This document shows, piece after piece, positions 1 through 55,851 of a stretch of DNA of 55,852 nt (positions are counted from its first letter, which is position 1; every line of letters begins with the position of its first letter). The position numbers and the translations under genes are program-made. Below the pieces are notes generated by a model, which was not told where the DNA came from, searched no databases, and saw nothing but the letters and a program-made list of their open reading frames with translations. Source of the DNA: Chloroflexota bacterium. GTDB taxonomy: Bacteria > Chloroflexota > Limnocylindria > Limnocylindrales > CSP1-4. Location of the stretch: the NCBI GenBank assembly GCA_025351245.1, contig JANXWH010000098.1:1-55852 (forward strand). The letters are read 5' to 3'.

Positions 1-568
1 GGCTCGCGTTGGTGACGTCGGTGATGTGGACGCCGCCCGACGTGCCGCCGGTCAGGTTCCAGATGCACCAGGTGTCGATGTTGCCAAACAGGAGATCGCC
101 GGCCTCGGCCTTGGCCCGGGCGCCCGCGACGTTGTCGAGGATCCACTTGGCCTTCGGGCCGGAGAAATAGGTCGCCAGCGGAAGGCCGGTCTTCGGCCGG
201 AGACGATCCGAGCCGCCATCCGCGGCAAGCGCGGCGCAGATGTCAGCGGTCCGGGTGTCCTGCCAGACGATCGCGTTGTAGACGGGCTTGCCGGTGTGGC
301 GATCCCAGACCACCGTGGTCTCGCGCTGGTTCGTGACGCCGACCGCGGCGAGGTCCGCGGCGGTGATGCCGGCCTTGGCGAGGGCGCCGCGGATGACCTC
401 TTGCGACCGGGTCCAGATCTCCTCGGGGTTGTGCTCGACCCAGCCGGGCTTCGGGAAGATCTGCTCGTGCTCCTTCTGATCGACCGCGACGACGGCACCG
501 GCGTGGTCGAAGATCATGAAGCGGGTGCTCGTCGTGCCCTGGTCGAGCGCGCCGACGTATTTCGTCAT
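1..568 (-). CDS. glpK: Glycerol kinase, N-terminal part (the 3' end runs off the window)
   Basis: Absent from the ORF track because it is cut by the window edge. The reverse complement of 541-568 reads ATG ACG AAA TAC GTC GGC GCG CTC GAC (MTKYVGALD). It continues [13 protein letters not shown]...[11 protein letters not shown], a typical FGGY glycerol kinase N-terminus. Confidence 0.9.
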
Positions 569-606
569 GTCTTTCTCCGTACGGATCGAAATGGCGCGCG
601 CCGGCG

Positions 607-1248
607 CTAGCCGGCGCGCAAAGCGTCGCGAAGGGATTCGAACAGGATCGTGGTGCTCGTCGCGCCCGGATCCTGGTGGCCGGCGGAGCGTTCTCCCAGG
701 TAGCTCGCCCTGCCCTTGCGGGCCACGAACGGGGTGACCCGGTCGCGTCCCTCGGCGGCCGCGATGGCGGCAGCGTCCAGAGCGGCCGGGAGGTCCCCGA
801 CGCCCGCCTCGAGCGCGGCGACGGCCGGCACCATGGCATCGACCATCGTCTTGTCGTCGAGCCCGGCCTTGCCGCGGGCGATGACGCCCTCCAGCCCGGC
901 ACGGAACCCTGCGGCAAGCTCGGTGGGGCCGATCTCCGTGGCCGTTCCGAACGCGGTGCCGAGGCGAAGGAAGAACGTCCCGTAGAGGGGGCCGCTCGCC
1001 CCGCCGACCGTCGAGATGAGCTTCATGCCAGTCTGCTTGAAGAGCGTCCCGGCATCGCCATCCGGGAGCCCCGGGAGGAGCTCCATGATGGCGGTCATCC
1101 CGCGGTCCATGTTGATCCCGTGGTCCGCGTCGCCGATGGCGGAGTCGAGCTGCGTCAGCTCCTCCTTTGCGTCGTGGATCCGGGCGGCGAACGTCTCGAG
1201 GAAGCGCGAGAAGTCGCCTGTGGAGATCACGGGCGTCAGACTCCCCAC
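607..1248 (-). CDS. dhaL: Dihydroxyacetone kinase subunit L (ADP-binding, DAK2 domain)
   Basis: DAK2 motifs are present: [31 protein letters not shown] and [21 protein letters not shown]. The GTG at 1248 overlaps the dhaK stop. An alternative in-frame GTG lies at 1230. Confidence 0.9.
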
Positions 1249-2234
1249 CGCAGGGCGGGTGTCTTGACCGGCGCGTCCCAGAACCGGAGCAGCTCGTCGT
1301 CGAGCTTGAGGAGCGTGATCGACAATCCCGCCATCTCGAGCGACGTGATGTAGCTCCCGACCAGGTTGCGCGCGATCGTGATCCCGCGTCCTGTCAGGAT
1401 CTCGTTCACCTTCCGGTAGGCCACGTAGAGCTCGATGAGCGGCGTGCCACCCATCCCGTTGACGAACGCGAGGACGCGGTCCCCGCTCGCGAAGATGCCC
1501 TCCTCGAGGATCGGCGTGACAAGCATCTCGACGATCTCGTCGGCCGGCCGGAGTGCTTCGCGCCGGCGTCCGGGCTCACCGTGGATGCCGACGCCGATCT
1601 CCATCTCCGTATCGGAGATGTCGAAGGTCGGCTTGCCGGCGGCGGGCACGGTGCAGGAGGTCAGGGCCATGCCCATCGACCGGACGTTGTCCTGGACCTT
1701 CTGGCAGAGCGCGGTGACCGTCTTGAGGTCGGCGCCGGCCTCGGCGGCCGCTCCGACGATCTTCTCGGCGAGCACGGTGCCGCCGACGCCGCGGCGACCC
1801 GCCGTGTAGAGCGAGTCCTTCACGGCAACGTCGTCGGCGATGACGACCGAGGCGACCTCGATCCCCTCCGCCTGCGCGAGCTCGGCCGCGATCTCGAAGT
1901 TCATGATGTCGCCGGTGTAGTTCTTCACGATGTGAAGGACGCCGGCGCCACCGTTGACCGCCTTCGTGGCGGCGAGCATCTGATCAGGCACGGGCGAGGT
2001 GAAGACTGCGCCCGGGCAGGCCGCATCAAGCATGCCGAGCCCGACGAAACCGCCGTGCATCGGCTCGTGGCCTGAGCCACCGCCGGAGATGACGCCCACC
2101 TTGCCGGGGCGAGGCGCGTCCTTGCGGACGATGATGTTCGGTTCCTCGACGCGAATGAGGTCGGGGTGCGCCGCGGCCATGCCGGCGAGCGCCTCGTCAA
2201 CCTCGCGCTCCGGGGTGTTGATGAGCTTCTTCAT
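1236..2234 (-). CDS. dhaK: Dihydroxyacetone kinase subunit K (DAK1 domain)
   Basis: The protein reads MKKLINTPE...[35 protein letters not shown]. The ATG at 2234 was chosen because GGAGGAG lies just upstream. The track ORF starts 6 codons earlier. Confidence 0.92.
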
Positions 2235-2356
2235 GCGCTCCTCCAATGGCAAGTCAACGGCGGATGCTCAGGGATGCCATGGACCTGATCGGAGCGCCGG
2301 CGGCGGGGCCGAAGCCGCCGGCGCGCGGGATCGCGAGGATCCCTCCTGGGATCAGG

Positions 2357-3091
2357 TCAGTTCGGGAGAACCTTCAGGATGAAGTTCTGGTACAGGGAGA
2401 CCCACACGACCGCGGCCACGGCACCGCCGATGAGCGGTCCGACCACCGGGATCCAGGCGTACTCCCAGTCGCTGCTGCCCTTGCCGGGGATCGGCAGGAT
2501 GGCATGCATGATCCGCGGCCCAAGGTCGCGGGCGGGGTTGATCGCGTACCCGGTCGTACCTCCAAGCGAGAGGCCAATCACGACGACGAGGAGCGCGACG
2601 GCCAACGGGCCCAGGCTCGCAGTGTTCTTGCCGAACGTGAGGATGACGAACACCAGCACGAAGGTCCCGATGATCTCCGAGAGCACGTTCCAGAGCGGGC
2701 TGCGGATCGCCGGGCCGGTGCTGAAGACGGCGAGCTTGAGGCCCGGGTCCTCGGTCTCAGCCCAGTGCGGGTAGTAGTGCAGGAAGACGAGCGTGGCACC
2801 GATGAACGCGCCCAGGAACTGGGCCACGAGGTACATCGGCACCTGGTCCCACGGGGTCTTGCCGGCGATGGCGAGACCGAGGGTGACCGCCGGGTTCAGG
2901 TGCGCGCCGCTGTACGGGCCCGAAACCACGACACCCGAGAAGACGGCCAATCCCCACGCGAGGGTGATGACGACCCAGCCGCCCGCAAAGGCCTTGGACT
3001 TGTTCAGGAGGACGCCCGCGACCACGCCGTCGCCGAGGAGGATCAGGATCATGGTCCCGATCAGTTCCGCTACGAATGCTTCTGGTTTCAT
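2357..3091 (-). CDS. glpF: Glycerol uptake facilitator (aquaglyceroporin, MIP family)
   Basis: Two NPA motifs (HLNPAVT and INPARDLGPR) and multiple TM segments are present. The ATG at 3091 is preceded by GGGAG. Confidence 0.9.
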   Translation of the reverse strand: MKPEAFVAELIGTMILILLGDGVVAGVLLNKSKAFAGGWVVITLAWGLAVFSGVVVSGPYSGAHLNPAVTLGLAIAGKTPWDQVPMYLVAQFLGAFIGATLVFLHYYPHWAETEDPGLKLAVFSTGPAIRSPLWNVLSEIIGTFVLVFVILTFGKNTASLGPLAVALLVVVIGLSLGGTTGYAINPARDLGPRIMHAILPIPGKGSSDWEYAWIPVVGPLIGGAVAAVVWVSLYQNFILKVLPN

Positions 3092-3351
3092 GCTCACTCC
3101 CTCTATTGGGTGGACGCCAACGTCGGCTGCAAGCCTGCTGGCTCGATCCCTCCACTGCCGCGGCCGCGACCCCGGCCCGGGTCGCCTGGCGGCCGATCAC
3201 GCCGACGCCACAGTGCCCTCGAGCACTGTTGCGGAAACGGTACGCCCGCCGGGGGGCCGAAAACGTCAAGGAAACGTCTAGGTTGCAGAAACGTTGCGGT
3301 TTGCGGCCGTGAAAGACGGTGCCGGCGACGGCACAGGCAAGGCTTCGCGGG

Positions 3352-3999
3352 TCAGGCGCCGCCCGCCGCCGCGTCCGCGAGGGCCCGGAGGAGCAGCGCG
3401 CTGGAGACGGCGCCGGGGTCGAGGTGGCCGATGGACCGCTCCCCCAGGTAGCTCGCCCGACCCTTGGTCGCAAGGAGCGGCAGCGTGTCGCGAGCGCCGG
3501 CTTCGGCCGCGTCGGCCGCGCGGTGCAGCGCGCTCGCGACATCGACGCCGGTCGCACCCGCAGCCTCACAAGCGACGACCGCGGGGACGAGCGCGTCGAG
3601 CATCGTCTTCTCGCCTGGCCGGGAGCGACCGAGGGCGGCCACGCCGTCGACGGCCGCCCGGAGGACAGCCGCAAGCTGTGCCGAGGTCACGACCGACCCA
3701 CCAGGCCAGGCCTCCAGCGCAGCGCCCGCCCGCAGGAGCGCACGGCCGTAAAGCGCGCCGCTGGCCCCCCCGACCGTGCCGGTGATGGTCCGGCCCGCCA
3801 GCACCAACAGGGGTCCCGGGGCGTCCGTGGCGAAGTCGCCGGCGGCCAGCCGGGCCTCCAGCGCGCCGAAGCCGCGGTGCAGGTTGATGCCGTGATCCCC
3901 ATCGCCGATCGCAGCGTCGAGCTCGGTCAGGTGCACGCGCTCCGCGGCGATCCGGGATGCGGCCAGGCGAAGCCAGCCGGCGATGAGCGCGCCGCTCAC
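3352..3999 (-). CDS. DhaL-like DAK2-domain protein, paralogue 2
   Basis: DAK2 motifs are present: LDAAIGDGDHGINL, GGASGALYG, GEKTMLDA and [21 protein letters not shown]. The track ORF extends to 4230, but that part overlaps dhaM. The in-frame GTG at 3999, 20 nt after the dhaM stop, is taken as the start. Confidence 0.75.
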   Translation of the reverse strand: MSGALIAGWLRLAASRIAAERVHLTELDAAIGDGDHGINLHRGFGALEARLAAGDFATDAPGPLLVLAGRTITGTVGGASGALYGRALLRAGAALEAWPGGSVVTSAQLAAVLRAAVDGVAALGRSRPGEKTMLDALVPAVVACEAAGATGVDVASALHRAADAAEAGARDTLPLLATKGRASYLGERSIGHLDPGAVSSALLLRALADAAAGGA

Positions 4000-4018
4000 G
4001 AGGTGGGCCGCCGCGCGG

Positions 4019-4450
4019 TCACCCCGGAGCCGTCCCGTTGGCCGGCCAGTCGTCGGGGAGCTTGTCGTGCCCTGGCGGCACCTCCGAGGCGGCCAGCACG
4101 GCGGTGAGCGGTCCGCCGCCTGCGGCCTCGACGGCCGCTCGCACGGCCCCCTCGACGAGCGCGCCGCGACTGACCCGGACCCGCGCCCGATCGGCCGGCA
4201 CGAGATCGTCGAGCGCCATCTCGAGCGCAAGCGCGGCGCTGCCCAGGTCGAGCAGCACGACAGCGCCGTCCGGAGCCTCCGCGAGGACCCCGCGCACCGC
4301 CGCGAGGATCATCGGCGCGCTGGTCCCCAGTGCGCCGCCGTCCGTGCCGCCGGCCACGCTGACGAGGACTGCGGGCGCGGCCTGGGCCAGCATCGCGCGG
4401 AGCCCGCGGAGCAGCTCGGGGCTGTGGCCGACCAGGACGATCGCGACCAT
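4019..4450 (-). CDS. dhaM: PTS-dependent dihydroxyacetone kinase phosphotransfer subunit, single EIIA(Man)-like domain
   Basis: The N-terminus MVAIVLVGHSPELLRGL has the conserved His9 context, followed by VLLDLGSA. The ATG at 4450 is preceded by GGAGG with a 7-nt spacer. Confidence 0.75.
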   Translation of the reverse strand: MVAIVLVGHSPELLRGLRAMLAQAAPAVLVSVAGGTDGGALGTSAPMILAAVRGVLAEAPDGAVVLLDLGSAALALEMALDDLVPADRARVRVSRGALVEGAVRAAVEAAGGGPLTAVLAASEVPPGHDKLPDDWPANGTAPG

Positions 4451-4528
4451 CGAGCACCTCCGGGCATCCGGCGGTCCGCCCCGGATCGCCGCGGACGGGC
4501 CCGCGGCGGAGGGTAGACTCTGCGCTGC

Positions 4529-5254
4529 ATGAGTCTAGGACGACCCGACCGGCAGGCGGTGGGTGCCGGCGCCACAGCGGTCACGATCACCGCGGAGGAC
4601 GTCGTCGCCTTCATCGGGCGCGCGGCGACGACGATCGCCCGTCACGAGGCGCTGCTCGACCGGCTCGATGCCGCGCTCGGTGACGGCGATCACGGCACGA
4701 ACATGACCACCGGCCTCCAGGCCGTGGTCCGCGCCCTCACGGACGAAGCACCGGCGGAGGCGGTCGGCCCGCTCGACGTCGGGGCATTGCTCCGCCGGAT
4801 CGGGCACACCCTGGTCGGCAGTGTCGGCGGTGCCAGCGGCCCCCTCTACGGGACGCTGTTCATCGAGACGGGATTCGCGCTGGACGGGCGACACGCGGTG
4901 GACCTGCCCACCCTCGCCCATGCGCTCGACGCGGGCCGGGCCGGTCTCGCACGTCGCGGCCGTTGCGCGCTCGGCGACAAGACGATCCTCGATGCCCTGG
5001 AGCCCGCCACCCGGGCACTCCTCGCCGGGGCGGCGACGGGGCTCCCGCCCGACGAGGCCTTCGTGCGGGCGGCCCGGGCGGCTCGGGCGGGCGTCCGCGC
5101 CACGATCCCGATGGTCGCTCGACGGGGGCTCGCCCTGCGGCTGGGTGAACGATCGCGCGGCCATCGCGACCCCGGCGCGACCTCGTGCTTCCTCCTCGTT
5201 CGCTCCATGCTGGACGGACGGACCGGACGGCGCCCGCACGTGCGACCCCGGTGA
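4529..5254 (+). CDS. DhaL-like DAK2-domain protein, paralogue 3, first gene of an operon with a two-component system
   Basis: DAK2 motifs are present: [32 protein letters not shown] and RLGERSRGHRDPGA. Its TGA stop (5252-5254) overlaps the GTG (5251-5253) of the downstream kinase. Confidence 0.75.
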   Translation: MSLGRPDRQAVGAGATAVTITAEDVVAFIGRAATTIARHEALLDRLDAALGDGDHGTNMTTGLQAVVRALTDEAPAEAVGPLDVGALLRRIGHTLVGSVGGASGPLYGTLFIETGFALDGRHAVDLPTLAHALDAGRAGLARRGRCALGDKTILDALEPATRALLAGAATGLPPDEAFVRAARAARAGVRATIPMVARRGLALRLGERSRGHRDPGATSCFLLVRSMLDGRTGRRPHVRPR

Positions 5255-6852
5255 GCGACGAGGACGCACTCCGGGCGCGCGTGGCGACCCTGGAGGACGA
5301 GCGCCGGCGAGCCTTCGACGAGGCCCAACGCGAGGCGGACGCGATGTTCGCCCAGTACCAGCTGAGCCAGTTGCTGGCCTCCGGCGACAACCTGGAGAAG
5401 CTGGCGCCGGCCGTCCTCGCGGAGATCGCCCGGACGAGCGGAGCCGGGGCCGCCGCGCTCTGGCTGGCAGATCGGACGCGGCGGACGTTTCATCTGATCG
5501 CGTCGGTCGAACCGGGGGACGAGCCGACGGCAAGCGGATCGGACGGCGGCACCGAGCTTCCGATCGCGTTCGCCGACTCCGGTACGGCGGGTCGCTGGGC
5601 TGCCCGCGCCGGCTGGTTCGGCGTCCCGCTCGAGGAGAGCCGCGCCCTGGGCGTCGGCGGGGCGGGCCGCGTCGCGCTCGGCTACCTCGCGATCCGGCCG
5701 GCGCGCGGTGGGACGCTGGACCCTGGACACGCCCGCTATCTCGGGCTCGTTCGGCGAGAGCTGGCCCTTGCGTTCCGGGCCGCCCAGCTGCGCGGGGCCC
5801 TCCTGCACGAACGGGCGACGCTCGCCGCGATCCTCGATGGCGCGAGTGACGCGATCATCGCGGTGGACTCCGATCGCCGGATCACCCGGCTCAACGGTGC
5901 AGCGGCGCGGCTCGTCGGCGCGGCGGAGCGCCAGGGAATCGGGGCGACCTGCGAAGCCTTCCTGGGGTGCCTGCCGGAGGATGGCGGCAGTCGCGGCTGC
6001 GGACGCACCTGCCCCTTCCGGGAGGTGCTGGCCCACGGGCGGCCGCTGATCCGCGAGCAGATCGTCGCCGGCGTGGACAGTGGGGCGATCCCGGTCGCGG
6101 CGAGCTACGCGCGGATGACGGGCTCGCCACCGGGCGCGGTCGCGGTCCTGCGGGACCTGCGCGTGACGCGCTCGCTCGATGCGCTCAAGTCAAGCTTCGT
6201 CGCCACGATCTCGCATGAGCTTCGGACGCCCCTCGCCCTCATCAGCGGCCATTCGCAGAGCCTCCTTCACCTGGGCCTCGACGCGCCCACGAGCCGACAC
6301 CACCTGGAGCGGATCGGGGATGCCGTGGACCGGCTCGGCTCACTGGTGGACGACGTGATCGACGTGTCGCGCCTCGAGAGTGACCAGCTCCTGCTCGACC
6401 GCGCGCCCGTCGACCTCCAGGCCCTGCTGCGTGCGTTTGCCGCAGAGCAGGGCGAGCTACCCGGGGCGCCATCGATCACGCTGGACGTGCCGGCCCTGCC
6501 GCAGGTGGACGTGGATGCCCGCCGCATCCGGCAGGTCATGGCAAACCTGGCGGCGAACACGCAGAAGTACGCGGGCACGGGTGCGTCGATCACGATTCGT
6601 GCTCGCCACCTGCCCCCGGACTCGGTTGTCGTCACGTTCGCCGACGACGGCGAGGGGATCGACTCCGCGGAGCGGGCCCAGGTGTTCGACCGGTTCTTCC
6701 GGGGCGAGCGCGTCCGCGAGTCCCGCCTTCCCGGGAGCGGCCTCGGGCTCTACCTGTGCCGGCGGCTGGTCGAGGCGCACGGGGGCTGGATCCGGCTGGA
6801 CATGGCACGCCGCGGCATGTCGATCTCGTTCCGGCTCCCGGTGCTCCAGTGA
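5251..6852 (+). CDS. Soluble sensor histidine kinase (coiled-coil/GAF-like N-terminus, PAS with a Cys-rich motif, HisKA, HATPase_c)
   Basis: It has the H-box SHELRTPL and an N-box/G-box region (NLAANTQKY, DDGEGI, GSGLGLYLCRRLVEAHGG). No TM segments were seen. The GTG at 5251 is taken as start because of the GTGA overlap; the track ORF starts at 5185. Confidence 0.85.
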   Translation: MSDEDALRARVATLEDERRRAFDEAQREADAMFAQYQLSQLLASGDNLEKLAPAVLAEIARTSGAGAAALWLADRTRRTFHLIASVEPGDEPTASGSDGGTELPIAFADSGTAGRWAARAGWFGVPLEESRALGVGGAGRVALGYLAIRPARGGTLDPGHARYLGLVRRELALAFRAAQLRGALLHERATLAAILDGASDAIIAVDSDRRITRLNGAAARLVGAAERQGIGATCEAFLGCLPEDGGSRGCGRTCPFREVLAHGRPLIREQIVAGVDSGAIPVAASYARMTGSPPGAVAVLRDLRVTRSLDALKSSFVATISHELRTPLALISGHSQSLLHLGLDAPTSRHHLERIGDAVDRLGSLVDDVIDVSRLESDQLLLDRAPVDLQALLRAFAAEQGELPGAPSITLDVPALPQVDVDARRIRQVMANLAANTQKYAGTGASITIRARHLPPDSVVVTFADDGEGIDSAERAQVFDRFFRGERVRESRLPGSGLGLYLCRRLVEAHGGWIRLDMARRGMSISFRLPVLQ

Positions 6853-7586
6853 TGCCGGACCCGATGCCCGGGGCGCGAATCCTCATCGTGGAGGACGAGC
6901 CGGAGTTCGCCGACCTCCTGGCGCTGTGGGTTGAGCGGCACGGCTGGCAGCCGCGCGTGGCCCGCGACGGCGCCGCGGCGATCGTCGTCTTCGAGGCGGA
7001 GACGCCCGACCTCGTCCTGCTGGACCTGAGCCTGCCCCGACTGAACGGCTGGCAGGTGATCGAACGGATCCGCGCGTCGAGCCTGGTCCCGATCCTCCTG
7101 GTCACCGCGCGCGATTCCGAGCAGGACAAGATCCGCGGCCTGGGCGCCGGCGCAGATGACTACGTCACCAAACCGCTCAGCTTCCCGGAGCTGATGGCGC
7201 GCATCAAGGCCCTCCTCCGTCGAGCCAATGCCCACGCCGTGGTGATCGCCGGCGACGAGCTCCGCCACCCGGGGCTGGTCATCGACGGGCGCGGCCACCG
7301 CGCGACCGCGGGCGGCCACGAGATCCACCTGACGCCGACCGAGTACCGCCTGCTCCGCCACCTTGCCGAGCGCCCGGAATCCGTGGTCGGCCACGCCGAC
7401 CTGCTGACCGCGGTCTGGGGCGCGGGCTACCGCGAGGAACGCCACCTCCTGCGCGTGACGATGCGCAACCTGCGGGCGAAGCTCACCGAGGCGGCGCCGA
7501 CCCGGCGGTTCATCGCGACGAGCTACGGCGTGGGCTATCGGTTCCGGGCCGGCGCGGACGCCGCGGAGACCGCGGACGAGGGCTGA
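6852..7586 (+). CDS. OmpR/PhoB-family response regulator
   Basis: The receiver domain reads ILIVEDEPE...LVLLDLSLP...DDYVTKP. The winged-helix output reads LTPTEYRLLRHL...GVGYRF. The ATG at 6852 shares one nucleotide with the kinase TGA (TGATG). Confidence 0.9.
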   Translation: MPDPMPGARILIVEDEPEFADLLALWVERHGWQPRVARDGAAAIVVFEAETPDLVLLDLSLPRLNGWQVIERIRASSLVPILLVTARDSEQDKIRGLGAGADDYVTKPLSFPELMARIKALLRRANAHAVVIAGDELRHPGLVIDGRGHRATAGGHEIHLTPTEYRLLRHLAERPESVVGHADLLTAVWGAGYREERHLLRVTMRNLRAKLTEAAPTRRFIATSYGVGYRFRAGADAAETADEG

Positions 7587-10500
7587 TCCGGGGCGGACGG
7601 GCGTCGAGCCGCGGCCACGCGGGTCACGATCGCCTGGGTCAGCACCCACGCCCGGGCCGCGTCGCGCGGGATCCGGATCCGGACCTGGCTCGCCGCGAAC
7701 GTGACGTCCCCCGGCCGGACCCCGGGAAGCGGCGCGCCGGCGATCAGGCGCATCGCCTCCCCCCGTGAGAGCCCCGACCCGAAGCGGACCACGAGCTGGC
7801 CCTCCTCGCGGGCCAGCGACGAGATCCCGGCCGCCTCCGCGGCCAGGCGCAGCTCGGCGACCTCCACGAGTCGGAGGACCGCGGGAGGCATCGGCCCGAA
7901 CCGGTCGGCCACCTCCTGCCGGAACGCCGCGAGGTCGCCTGGCGTTCGGGCGCGCGCCAGCCGCCGGTAGAGCTCGAGCTTCGCTCCTTCGTCGGGAATG
8001 TAGGCGTCCGGGAGGTGGGCATCCACGGGGAGGTCCACCGTTGCCCCTGCCGGGGCGAGCGTCGGGGCGCGGCCCTCCCAGGTCGCCTTGCGTTCTTCCA
8101 CCGCCTCCGCGAGCAGCCTCGTGTAGAGATCGAAGCCGACCGCGGCCATGTGCCCCGACTGCTCGCCGCCCAGGATGTTGCCGGCGCCGCGGATCTCCAG
8201 GTCGGAGAGCGCGATCTGGAAGCCCGCACCCAGCTCGGAGGCGTTGAAGATCGCCTGGAGACGCCTGCGCGCCTCGTCGGAGAGGCGGTCGCGGCGGCGG
8301 TAGAGCAGGTACGCGTAGGCCCGCCGCGAGCTCCGCCCCACCCGGCCGCGGAGCTGGTAGAGCTGGGCCAGGCCCAGCGTGTCGGCGCGATCGATGACGA
8401 TCGTGTTCGCGTTCGGGATGTCCAGCCCGGATTCGATGATCGTGGTGCAGACCAGGACGTCCGCCTCGCCGCCGGCAAACGTGCGCATGACGCCCTCGAG
8501 GAGCCGTTCGTCCATCTGCCCGTGGCCCACCACGACCCGCGCCCCGGGCAGGAGCCGGCGGAGCTGGTCCGCCTGCGCCTCGATCGTCTCGACCCGGTTG
8601 TGGACGTAGAAGGCCTGCCCTCCGCGATCCAGCTCGCGGAGGATCGCGTCCTTGACGAGCCCCGCGGACGCCTCGGCGACACGCGTCTGGATGGGCAGGC
8701 GGTCCTCTGGGGGCGTCTCGATGACGGAGAGGTCGCGGACACCGACGAGCGCGAGGTTGAGCGTGCGCGGGATCGGGGTCGCGGAGAGCGTCAGGACGTC
8801 GACCTCGCGGCGCAGCTGCTTGAGACGCTCCTTCGCGGCGACCCCGAAGCGCTGCTCCTCGTCCACGACCAGGAGGCCGAGGTCGCGGATCCGAACGTCC
8901 TTCGAGAGGAGCCGATGGGTCCCCACGACGAGGTCGACCGACCCGGCGGCCAGCCCGGCGAGCGTCGCCTGCTGCTCGCGCGGCGGGACGGACCGCGAGA
9001 GCATCCGGACCGTGGTCGGGAAGGCCGCGAAACGCTGGGTGAACGTCCGCAGGTGCTGGTCGGCGAGGACGGTCGTCGGGACGAGGACCGCCACCTGCCG
9101 GCCGTCCTGGATCGCCTTGAACGCGGCCCGCAGGGCAACCTCCGTCTTGCCGTAGCCCACGTCGCCGACGACCACCCGGTCCATCGGCCGGCCGGCTTCC
9201 ATGTCCCCCTTCACGTCGACGATGGCTCGCTGCTGGTCCGGGGTCTCCTCGTACGGGAACGAGGCCTCGAGCTCCTGCTGCCAGGGCGTGTCGGGTGCGA
9301 ACGCGTGGCCCTCCGCGGCGGCCCGCGCGGCGTAGAGTTCCAGGAGCTCCTCGGCCAGGTCCGAGACCGCCTTGCGAACGCGGGCCTTCGTCCGGGCCCA
9401 CTCGCCGCCACCCAGCTTCGAGAGGCCGGGCCGCTCCGCCCCCGCGTAGCGGCTGATGCGAGCGATCTGCTCAAGCGGCACGAAGATCCGGTCCGTGCCG
9501 GCGAAGCCGATCTCCAGGTAGTCCCGCTCCTCGCCTTCGCTGCCGCGCCGGAGCATCCGTTCGTAGCGGCCGATCCCGTGGTCGACGTGGACGACGAGGT
9601 CGCCCGCCGTGAGGCGCTCCAGGATGTCGCGCGGCACGACGCGTCGAAGGGCCTTCGGCCGGCGGACGCGCACCGCCCCGAAGAGCTCGCGGTCGGTGAT
9701 CAGCACGAGGCCGTCCGGCCCTCCGGCGAACCCGGCGTTCAGGCTGCGCCCAACGAGCGTCACGGCACCGGGCGGCGGCGCGGTCGCCGGGTGGAACGTG
9801 ACACCGGCCGGGATCCCCGCCTCGCCGAGCAGCTCCGACAGCCGGGGTGCCTGGTCCGAGGCGATCACGATCCGTGGCGCCGGCGAGCGCTGGGCCCCCG
9901 GCGCCCGGCGCGAGGCCACGATCCCCGGGAGGACGGCCGGTCGGTCGTCCTCGGCTTCCTCCTCCGCGATCGGGACGGTGGCGGGCCGGCCCGCGCGCCA
10001 GCGCTCGATGGCGCGCGGGAGGCTCGTGCTCCGGCCGGGCGGCAGCATCGGCTCGCGCCAGCCGAACGGGTCCTCGGTCGCGGCCCCGCCGCCGATCGCC
10101 TCCACGGGCCCGGACTCCCAGGTCAGCTCCAGCGTCCGGCCGCGGACGAGGCGCGCGTTCCAGTCGCGGGGCCCGACGTACGCGCCCGGCCACTCCCCGG
10201 GGAGCTCGCCCGCGGCGATCAGGTCGCGCCGCCGCTCCGCGGCCTGCTCCCAGAGGAACTCGGCCGCGGAGGCGACGTCGCCCGGCTCGTCGAGTACGAG
10301 GAGCGTCTCGGGCGGGAGATGGTCGATCCCGGAGACGGGGCAGAGGATCGCGGCCCAGACCTCGGCCGCGTCCCCGGCTTCCAGGGCGCGGGTCCCGGCG
10401 GCCGCCGCCGGCGCGTGGTCGTCGGCTCCCTCGAAATGCGCGAGGTCGGCGGCGAGGCGTTCCGGGAGCTGCGCGGCCAGCCGCCCGAGCCGCGCCCGGA

Positions 10501-55775: not shown

Positions 55776-55851
55776 GGGGATGTAGCTCAGCTGGAAGAGC
55801 ACCGCGTTCGCATCGCGGGGGTCAGGGGTTCGAGTCCCCTCATCTCCACCA
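55776..55851 (+). tRNA. tRNA-Ala (anticodon CGC) with encoded CCA
   Basis: A hand-folded cloverleaf gives acceptor GGGGATG/CATCTCC with the G3:U70 alanine identity pair. The D arm is GCTC/GAGC, the anticodon stem CCGCG/CGCGG, the anticodon loop TTCGCAT and the T arm AGGGG-TTCGAGT-CCCCT. Confidence 0.93.

Follow-up and report, generated by a model that had tools for sequence, protein, structure and literature searches.

The 55.9-kb stretch of Chloroflexota DNA analysed here (contig JANXWH010000098.1, G+C ~73%; hereafter the window) carries a three-gene unit, dhaL3-HK-RR, in which a third paralogue of the dihydroxyacetone (DHA) kinase subunit DhaL is translationally coupled to a soluble sensor histidine kinase (HK) and an OmpR/PhoB-family response regulator (RR). 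The reading favoured here, with a probability of about 0.5, is that this unit is a dedicated regulatory operon for the adjacent glycerol/dihydroxyacetone genes, with DhaL3 as the nucleotide-state co-sensor of the kinase. The parts of this reading differ in strength. As a conserved module, dhaL3-HK-RR is well supported, and it very likely regulates the dha genes. Binding of DhaL3 to the kinase is somewhat on the probable side, by analogy with known systems, and the nucleotide state of DhaL3 is proposed as the signal only tentatively. Judged from comparative genomics, the pairing of a DhaL paralogue with a two-component system looks like an undescribed route from sugar-phosphotransferase/DHA status to transcription.

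The three genes are joined by overlapping junctions. At the first (ccc-ggTGAgcg), the GTG start of the kinase at 5251 overlaps the dhaL3 stop TGA at 5252-5254 (GTGA), and at the second the kinase stop TGA at 6850-6852 shares one nucleotide with the regulator ATG at 6852 (TGATG, 6850-6854); an alternative in-frame GTG at 6849 would give the regulator a 4-nt overlap with the kinase. Both overlaps had been pointed out in a preliminary description of the window, which also presented dhaL3 as a third DAK2 gene and the three-gene unit as divergent from dhaM, and all of these claims were borne out: dhaL1 and dhaL2 are the two other DhaL genes, both on the minus strand, and a gap of 78 bp separates dhaM from dhaL3. 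Conserved junction overlaps are typical of stoichiometric partners.

Genomic context was collected by gene look-ups, by a genome-collection scan with a DhaL3 alignment, and by tblastn of the window proteins onto all fetched loci. The preliminary description had proposed such a synteny survey and had made its model depend on the co-occurrence of this DAK2 subfamily with kinase and regulator genes, and the outcome was positive in two Chloroflexota lineages. A DhaL3-type gene with readable context was found in 16 loci besides the window (L001-L007, L026, L032, L083-L086 and L088-L090), and in all 16 it precedes a kinase of the same family; the regulator comes next where the contig allows, and dhaM is divergent wherever the contig extends to that side. 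No locus with available context has DhaL3 or this kinase family without the other. The genome-collection scan returned at least 600 rows, mostly canonical dhaKL(M) loci, which served as a control set and not as a species count; about 70 canonical loci from many phyla among them show a plain dhaK-dhaL(-dhaM) arrangement without such a kinase. In addition, DhaL3 never adjoins dhaK, the dhaK-adjacent gene being a separate canonical DhaL in every locus examined, and a canonical DhaL is always also present in the loci with context.

Two arrangements of the locus were distinguished. Lineage A (the window, L001-L004 and L006) is characterised by glpF-dhaK-dhaL1-glpK, by dhaM followed by an extra canonical dhaL2, and by the syntenic flanks mfd and pth. 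Lineage B (L007, L026, L032, L084-L086, L088 and L090) has a single operon, dhaM-ptsH-glpF-dhaK-dhaL-ptsI, that faces dhaL3-HK-RR, and its outer flanks vary by locus, with unrelated flanks for example in L085, L086 and L090. Across the loci, identity drops to ~50% for DhaL3 and ~40% for the kinase, and gene order and overlaps are retained: the dhaL3 stop and the kinase start overlap by 4 nt (NTGA) in 9 of 12 loci, by 8 nt in two, and are separated by a 7-nt gap in one, and kinase and regulator share a 4-nt overlap in six of the eight scorable loci, the window included. Because gene order and overlapping junctions recur in related loci, the module is not a chance juxtaposition. The loci carry Chloroflexota labels (metagenome-assembled genomes of 'Candidatus Limnocylindrales', 'Candidatus Limnocylindria' and 'Chloroflexia'), and one bin is labelled Eisenbacteria.

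The number of canonical DhaL genes also varies. The dhaM-dhaL2 pair, with a second canonical DhaL behind dhaM, occurs only in the lineage of the window; only two DhaL genes instead of three are present in L001 and in the lineage-B loci, and the single canonical DhaL of lineage B is often nearer to DhaL2 than to DhaL1. A 627-aa protein (P0241) that combines the sensor with incomplete Dak2 and HisKA domains was considered as a Rosetta-stone fusion of DAK2 and kinase and was not counted as evidence; its truncated domains point to a frameshift in the gene call where the two genes overlap, as in P0218. No true DAK2-kinase fusion was found among the 105 sensor homologues described below, and the apparent fusions in public gene calls (P0241, P0218; also L083) look like frameshift read-through in error-prone assemblies.

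DhaL3 had been regarded as a DhaL-like nucleotide carrier. Its DAK2 homology and nucleotide motifs agree with this view, but it is not a plain carrier, having lost an Arg that is invariant in canonical DhaL. The three DhaL proteins of the window are mutually 41-47% identical, and DhaL3 matches E. coli DhaL (2btd/3pnl) with E=3.6e-35. It passes the DhaL equivalog TIGR02365 with 167.7 bits (cut-off 138.3), below the scores of DhaL1 and DhaL2, and because this model still accepts it, public records name it simply DhaL; the source names of DhaL3-type proteins are 'dihydroxyacetone kinase subunit DhaL' or 'dihydroxyacetone kinase-like protein'. The best 120 database matches to DhaL3 share at least 61% identity with it and are therefore considered orthologues, and DhaL3 is monophyletic in a neighbour-joining tree of 104 DhaL sequences drawn from the fetched loci.

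The nucleotide-binding elements of DhaL3 are intact. D47/D52/D54/H55, GGASG (100-104), GDKT (149-152) and DPGA (214-217) are all kept and are invariant in the DhaL3 clade, and the Mg-binding Asp triad D47/D52/D54 corresponds to E. coli D30/D35/D37. The persistence of the triad and of the GGASG, GDKT and DPGA motifs across ~50% divergence argues that nucleotide binding is under selection, and DhaL3 probably still binds nucleotide. The fixed differences from canonical DhaL are concentrated in one loop, where A-R-R-G-L-A-L-R-L-G-E-R-S replaces the canonical GRASY-containing sequence; the subfamily signature, ARRGLALRLGERSRGH, lies at aa 197-212. In all 12 DhaL3 sequences compared, position 201 is Leu (Arg in 91/91 canonical sequences), position 203 is Leu (Ser in 89/91) and position 204 is Arg (Tyr in 91/91), and the conserved K-G-R-A-S-Y stretch thus reads R-G-L-A-L-R in 12/12. 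GRASYL was present in 78 of 90 motif instances, the remainder keeping the Arg except for DhaL3. Further differences of the clade from the 91 canonical sequences are I50L, K89R, M153I and K199R. G-L-A-L-R-L or a one-residue variant was found in ~222 of the 240 DhaL3-type clusters listed by two protein searches, and the signature G-L-A-L-R-L-G-x-R-S cleanly splits DhaL3-type proteins from canonical DhaL.

The replaced Arg corresponds to R178 of E. coli DhaL and, like Arg543 of human TKFC, is 32 residues away from the C-terminus. In TKFC, Arg543 is reported to be essential and to contact ATP (PMC11506722). The equivalence of the replaced Arg to Arg543 would follow from position and not from an alignment. 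Taken together, the substitutions make DhaL3 an unlikely candidate for the normal catalytic partner of DhaK. It is not called dead, because the Arg found three residues past the lost one may partly compensate.

The kinase had been introduced as a cytoplasmic PAS histidine kinase. The absence of transmembrane segments was supported by a Kyte-Doolittle scan, in which the maximum 19-residue mean is 1.21, compared with 2.39 for GlpF. A PAS domain is indeed present, but the sensor is not PAS alone: in an AlphaFold (AF2) model based on a 43-sequence alignment, with a mean predicted local distance difference test (pLDDT) score of 85, a ~40-residue N-terminal helix, a GAF-like domain and a 40-residue linker helix precede it. 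The phospho-acceptor His322 (nt 6214-6216) lies in the H-box SHELRTPL. The best-conserved stretch of the sensor is FAQYQLSQLLASG at the end of the N-terminal helix, most positions of which are invariant and the others at least 90% conserved, making it a candidate docking or dimerisation surface. The sensor family is small: with kinase aa 1-308 as the query, a word-indexed search gave 105 matches, all of them ~530-aa kinases, and an exhaustive search of 1.84 billion representatives gave 21 clusters with the sensor at E ≤ 1e-30, beyond which generic PAS proteins follow.

The PAS domain also contains a Cys cluster (nt 5950-6012, aa 234-254), in which C234 and C240 are invariant and C254 is nearly invariant, and C250 of the window's lineage is replaced by His in lineage B. 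According to the AF2 secondary structure, these cysteines are located at E-alpha, the E-F loop and F-alpha, the region that is the usual cofactor position of PAS domains. The cluster could be a metal (Zn) or Fe-S (redox/O2) site, and as such a second or the sole input of the kinase.

The regulator contains the receiver Asp58 in LLLDLSLP and a winged-helix output domain, and together with the H-box His and HATPase_c of the kinase these are the elements of a classical two-component pair. The best NCBIfam similarities of transmitter and regulator are to PAS-HisKA kinases of the PhoR/PnpS/WalK type and to regulators of the PhoB/MtrA type, but no model reaches its cut-off for the kinase (best PnpS, 157 vs 400 bits) and no equivalog does so for the regulator (184-194 vs ~300), and membership of the pair in a named group (PhoR/PhoB, MtrB/MtrA or WalK/WalR) is therefore unsupported. 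The kinase further differs from the PhoR/PnpS/WalK type in lacking a membrane anchor and in its N-terminal sensor.

A direct repeat plausibly links the regulator to the dha genes. Upstream of glpF, TTGAC is repeated with 11-bp phasing in TAGACgtttccTTGACg (3280-3264), and a -10-like TACCGT (3242-3237) follows the proximal TTGACG at a distance of 21 nt. This 19-mer is unique in the window, with 0 occurrences expected by chance, and the block is conserved in the lineage-A loci L001-L004 and L006. In lineage B the dha operon begins at dhaM, and there the dhaM/dhaL3 intergenic region contains TTGAy-N6-TTGCT-N6-TTGAC(G) on the dhaM strand; its TTGCT-N6-TTGAC core was present in 8/8 lineage-B loci examined, and in both lineages the repeat is oriented towards the dha operon. 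A search of the 1.46 Mb of fetched loci gave no other instance of the strict three-site TTGAC pattern. OmpR/PhoB regulators usually bind operators made of direct repeats that are spaced by one helical turn and stand in for the -35 element, as in pho boxes, and the candidate operator likewise takes the place of the -35 element. Hence the 11-bp-phased TTGAC repeat is plausibly the operator of this regulator. That the repeat follows the dha promoter although the promoter position differs between the lineages is the main argument for control of the dha genes by the regulator.

The 9 nt that separate a -10-like TAGACT (4514-4519) from the dhaL3 ATG contain no Shine-Dalgarno sequence, which suggests that the dhaL3-HK-RR transcript is leaderless or near-leaderless and implies that the annotated dhaL3 start in L001 is too far downstream. 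The surrounding block, GTAGACTC, is conserved in L001-L004, and TACACT takes the place of TAGACT in L006, L032 and L085. On the opposite strand, the dhaM/dhaL3 intergenic region contains a GGAGG Shine-Dalgarno sequence for dhaM. A sigma70 consensus scan of positions 1-8000 detected no promoter, which is unsurprising at 73% G+C, and Rfam gave no match in the dha/dhaL3 region.

These results suggest a mechanism for the favoured reading, in which DhaL3 would be a paralogue retired from catalysis that has kept Mg-nucleotide binding. Phosphoenolpyruvate (PEP), enzyme I (EI), HPr and DhaM~P would set the ADP/ATP state of the DhaL proteins, and in the presence of DHA the canonical DhaL and DhaK would drain DhaM~P. 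The ADP/ATP state of DhaL3, set by phosphoryl exchange with DhaM~P, would report this drain; the proposal is that DhaL3 equilibrates with DhaM~P because it cannot pass phosphate on efficiently. One nucleotide form of DhaL3, the ADP form by analogy with E. coli, would then dock on the helix-GAF-PAS sensor and switch the kinase/phosphatase balance, and the phosphorylated regulator would bind the 11-bp-phased TTGAC repeats in the -35 region of the dha promoter and presumably activate it. In a stronger form, which is conceivable but falls short of even odds, DhaL3 would be a pseudo-enzyme with ADP/ATP as a fixed coenzyme signal in a stoichiometric complex with the kinase, and the PEP-EI-HPr-DhaM relay would be read directly by the two-component system. 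The extreme version, in which the gamma-phosphate of DhaL3-ATP is handed to the kinase and both phosphorelays are joined chemically, is much less likely because the kinase keeps a normal ATP-binding domain, and it is regarded as highly improbable.

Two systems are known in which DHA kinase subunits or their paralogues control transcription, DhaL/DhaK through DhaR and DhaQ through DhaS, and both are textbook cases of trigger enzymes. The control of E. coli DhaR by DhaL and DhaK is reportedly the work of Bachler et al. in EMBO J in 2005 and of Shi et al. in Structure in 2014. Depending on the nucleotide load of DhaL, DhaR is activated by DhaL and repressed by DhaK, and its N-terminal part, DhaR(N), is a GAF-PAS tandem (PMC10084136); the roles of DhaL and DhaK as co-activator and co-repressor were summarised in PMC10084136 and PMC6643234. 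As in E. coli, where dhaR is divergent from dhaKLM, the regulator genes of the window are divergent from the dha operon, the modelled sensor has the domain order of the DhaR sensor that binds DhaL-ADP, namely a GAF-like domain, a linker helix and PAS, and a DhaL protein would, by analogy, be the ligand that reports ADP/ATP load. A Foldseek search of the sensor model against the PDB returned mostly single PAS domains, and the E. coli complexes of DhaR(N) with DhaK and DhaL (4lry, 4lrx and 4lrz) rank 6, 17 and 18 of 1429. Few other matches extend over ~300 columns; the template-modelling (TM) scores of these complexes are 0.37-0.42, and DhaR(N) is thus among the best full-length structural matches. 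Unlike DhaR, in which AAA+ and helix-turn-helix domains share one chain, the system described here has HisKA/HATPase_c and a separate OmpR-type regulator; the proposed ligand is not the working DhaL subunit but a paralogue dedicated to this task, whose catalytic loop is altered; and the sensor has no detectable sequence homology to DhaR(N). Such homology was considered and dropped: BLASTP of the sensor against E. coli DhaR(1-320) gave no match, phmmer against the PDB gave weak FixL PAS matches only, and hhalign and a Foldseek search with the helix-GAF half of the sensor gave no specific match to DhaR either. A like architecture is retained, and the kinase module works at most like DhaR and is not a member of its family.

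The second known form is that of Lactococcus lactis, where the TetR-family regulator DhaS reportedly acts with the co-activator DhaQ, a DhaK paralogue, as Christen et al. are said to have described in J Biol Chem in 2006. Like DhaQ, DhaL3 would, by analogy, have arisen by duplication of a DHA kinase subunit, have lost catalysis and have been dedicated to dha regulation, whereas the L. lactis system pairs a paralogue of the DHA-binding K subunit with a one-component TetR regulator and the present one pairs a paralogue of the nucleotide-binding L subunit with a two-component system. Control of a histidine kinase by a small cytoplasmic protein is also familiar from PII (GlnB) with NtrB and from EIIA-Ntr (PtsN) with KdpD/PhoR, in which binding shifts the kinase/phosphatase balance and metabolic information is encoded by a bound nucleotide or effector or by phosphorylation through the phosphotransferase system (PTS); NtrB is likewise a PAS kinase free of transmembrane segments. 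The present case differs from these in the DAK2 fold, in the encoding of both partners in one translationally coupled operon, and in the tightly bound ADP/ATP coenzyme that is proposed as the signal.

Several observations weigh against DhaL3 as co-sensor and against the operator assignment. A Foldseek search with the N-terminal 175 aa of the kinase returned generic GAF domains (PtsP, sigma54 regulators and phytochromes), with DhaR outside the top 50 listed, and hhalign of the kinase-sensor profile with DhaR(N) gave a probability of 12%, only the linker and the start of PAS being aligned, in register. Moreover, the GAF pocket and the PAS Cys/His cluster could let the kinase sense signals by itself, and the loss of the Arg could impair the acceptance of a phosphoryl group by DhaL3 from DhaM. 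The window's own dhaM/dhaL3 intergenic region contains no TTGAC repeat, and the 55.9-kb window contains no gene for EI (ptsI) or HPr (ptsH); these were also not found in the lineage-A loci, and lineage B has both inside the dha operon. Finally, all loci come from one phylum, Chloroflexota, and the synteny is therefore partly due to shared ancestry.

Some of these points would fit a kinase that senses its own signal, either a ligand of the GAF pocket or redox state or metal through the PAS Cys cluster, with DhaL3 as an additional and perhaps specialised catalytic isozyme that only shares a transcript with the system regulating it. In its favour, DhaL3 passes TIGR02365 and keeps all nucleotide motifs, the N-terminal domain of the kinase has a generic GAF fold, and C234 and C240, which are invariant, together with the nearly invariant C254 and a fourth Cys/His lie at the usual PAS cofactor site. 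An isozyme of this kind is nevertheless unlikely, considering that the Arg of 91/91 canonical DhaL is replaced in every DhaL3, that DhaL3 never adjoins dhaK and a canonical DhaL is always present too, and that DhaL3 and the kinase family, whose start/stop overlap is conserved, are never apart where context is available. DhaL3 might instead act on the PTS branch as a phosphoryl buffer or as a competitor for DhaM~P that tunes the flux to DhaL/DhaK, the two-component system setting only the level of DhaL3. The constant divergence of dhaL3 from dhaM and the combination of a kept nucleotide site with a changed catalytic loop are consistent with such a role, which is considered quite improbable: it leaves unexplained why the strict translational coupling is to the kinase and not to dhaM, and why the kinase family occurs only with DhaL3. 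The faintest of the three alternatives is linkage without function, in which common descent within one clade explains the gene neighbourhood and unrelated genes are the targets of the two-component system. All loci being Chloroflexota, and the lineage-A flanks mfd and pth being syntenic as well, would be expected from descent; lineage B, however, keeps the module with different flanks, gene order and overlaps persist at ~50% DhaL3 and ~40% kinase identity, and the direct repeat is found at the dha promoter in both lineages despite the shifted promoter position.

The preliminary description was aware of no earlier account of this architecture, and the literature covered by full-text searches likewise yielded none for a DAK2 protein coupled to a histidine kinase. 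If the co-sensor reading is true, dhaL3-HK-RR would be a third form of transcription control based on DHA kinase, in which the same metabolic read-out is plugged into a different signalling chassis: the nucleotide-binding subunit would have been duplicated, have lost a conserved catalytic Arg and have been joined to a soluble histidine kinase. A clear case of a PTS branch that feeds a two-component system through a dedicated adaptor would thereby be added. In addition, more than 200 database clusters that bear the label 'dihydroxyacetone kinase subunit DhaL' would probably be regulators and not enzyme subunits, recognisable by G-L-A-L-R-L. The hosts are abundant, uncultured soil Chloroflexota of the Limnocylindria-like type.

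The features of the region, which belongs to the left 12 kb of the window, are listed in Table 1.

Table 1. Coordinates of the dha locus, the dhaL3-HK-RR unit, the kinase domains and the candidate operator in the window.
Feature	Position (nt)	Strand	Basis
glpK start (glycerol kinase)	off left end of window	-	FGGY glycerol kinase next in orthologous loci
dhaL1	607-1248	-	Pfam Dak2; TIGR02365 225 bits
dhaK	1236-2252	-	Pfam Dak1
glpF	2357-3097	-	Pfam MIP
Presumed target operon glpF-dhaK-dhaL1, running on into glpK	607-3097	-	
Candidate operator, direct repeat upstream of glpF	3261-3280	-	11-bp phasing
dhaL2, canonical DhaL paralogue, downstream of dhaM	3352-~3999	-	TIGR02365 200 bits
dhaM, single-domain EIIA-man type phosphoryl donor subunit	4019-4450	-	Pfam EIIA-man 4.4e-13
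dhaM/dhaL3 divergent intergenic region, 78 bp	4451-4528	.	
dhaL3, DAK2 domain, 241 aa	4529-5254	+	Pfam Dak2 E=6.8e-45
Soluble sensor histidine kinase, 533 aa, GTG start	5251-6852	+	PAS_4/PAS, HisKA, HATPase_c; sub-threshold GAF_3
FAQYQLSQLLASG motif, kinase aa 33-45, C-terminal end of N-terminal helix (aa 3-43)	5347-5385	+	alignments; AF2 model
GAF-like domain, aa 48-150	5392-5700	+	AF2 model; Pfam GAF_3 sub-threshold
Long linker helix, aa 158-197, GAF-like to PAS	5722-5841	+	AF2 model
PAS domain, aa 198-303	5842-6159	+	Pfam PAS_4/PAS_8/PAS
HisKA (aa 313-377) and HATPase_c (aa 422-531) transmitter core	6187-6843	+	HATPase_c 6.3e-23
OmpR/PhoB-family response regulator, 244 aa from ATG 6852	6852-7586	+	Response_reg 1.6e-26; Trans_reg_C 1e-20

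The TIGR02364 score of dhaM, 88 bits, is under the cut-off of 98.25, and glpF is separated from dhaL2 by 254 bp. The glpF leader extends for ~140 nt after the putative -10 element (3098-3236, minus strand) and begins with a hairpin, CAGTGC-TCGAGG-GCACTG (3211-3228), whose pairing survives in L002 and L004, where both arms have changed (CGGTGC...GCACCG); downstream of it is a conserved GGAGGGA block. The hairpin matched no Rfam family; possible roles are attenuation, antitermination or control of RNA stability. Next after the regulator gene are mfd and pth in convergent orientation, and the regulator gene and the mfd open reading frame overlap tail to tail at their 3' ends by ~52 nt (7535-7586); in L001 a major facilitator superfamily transporter gene sits between regulator and mfd. 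At the right end of the window, a tRNA gene (55776-55848, plus strand) is the sole Rfam match in the window.

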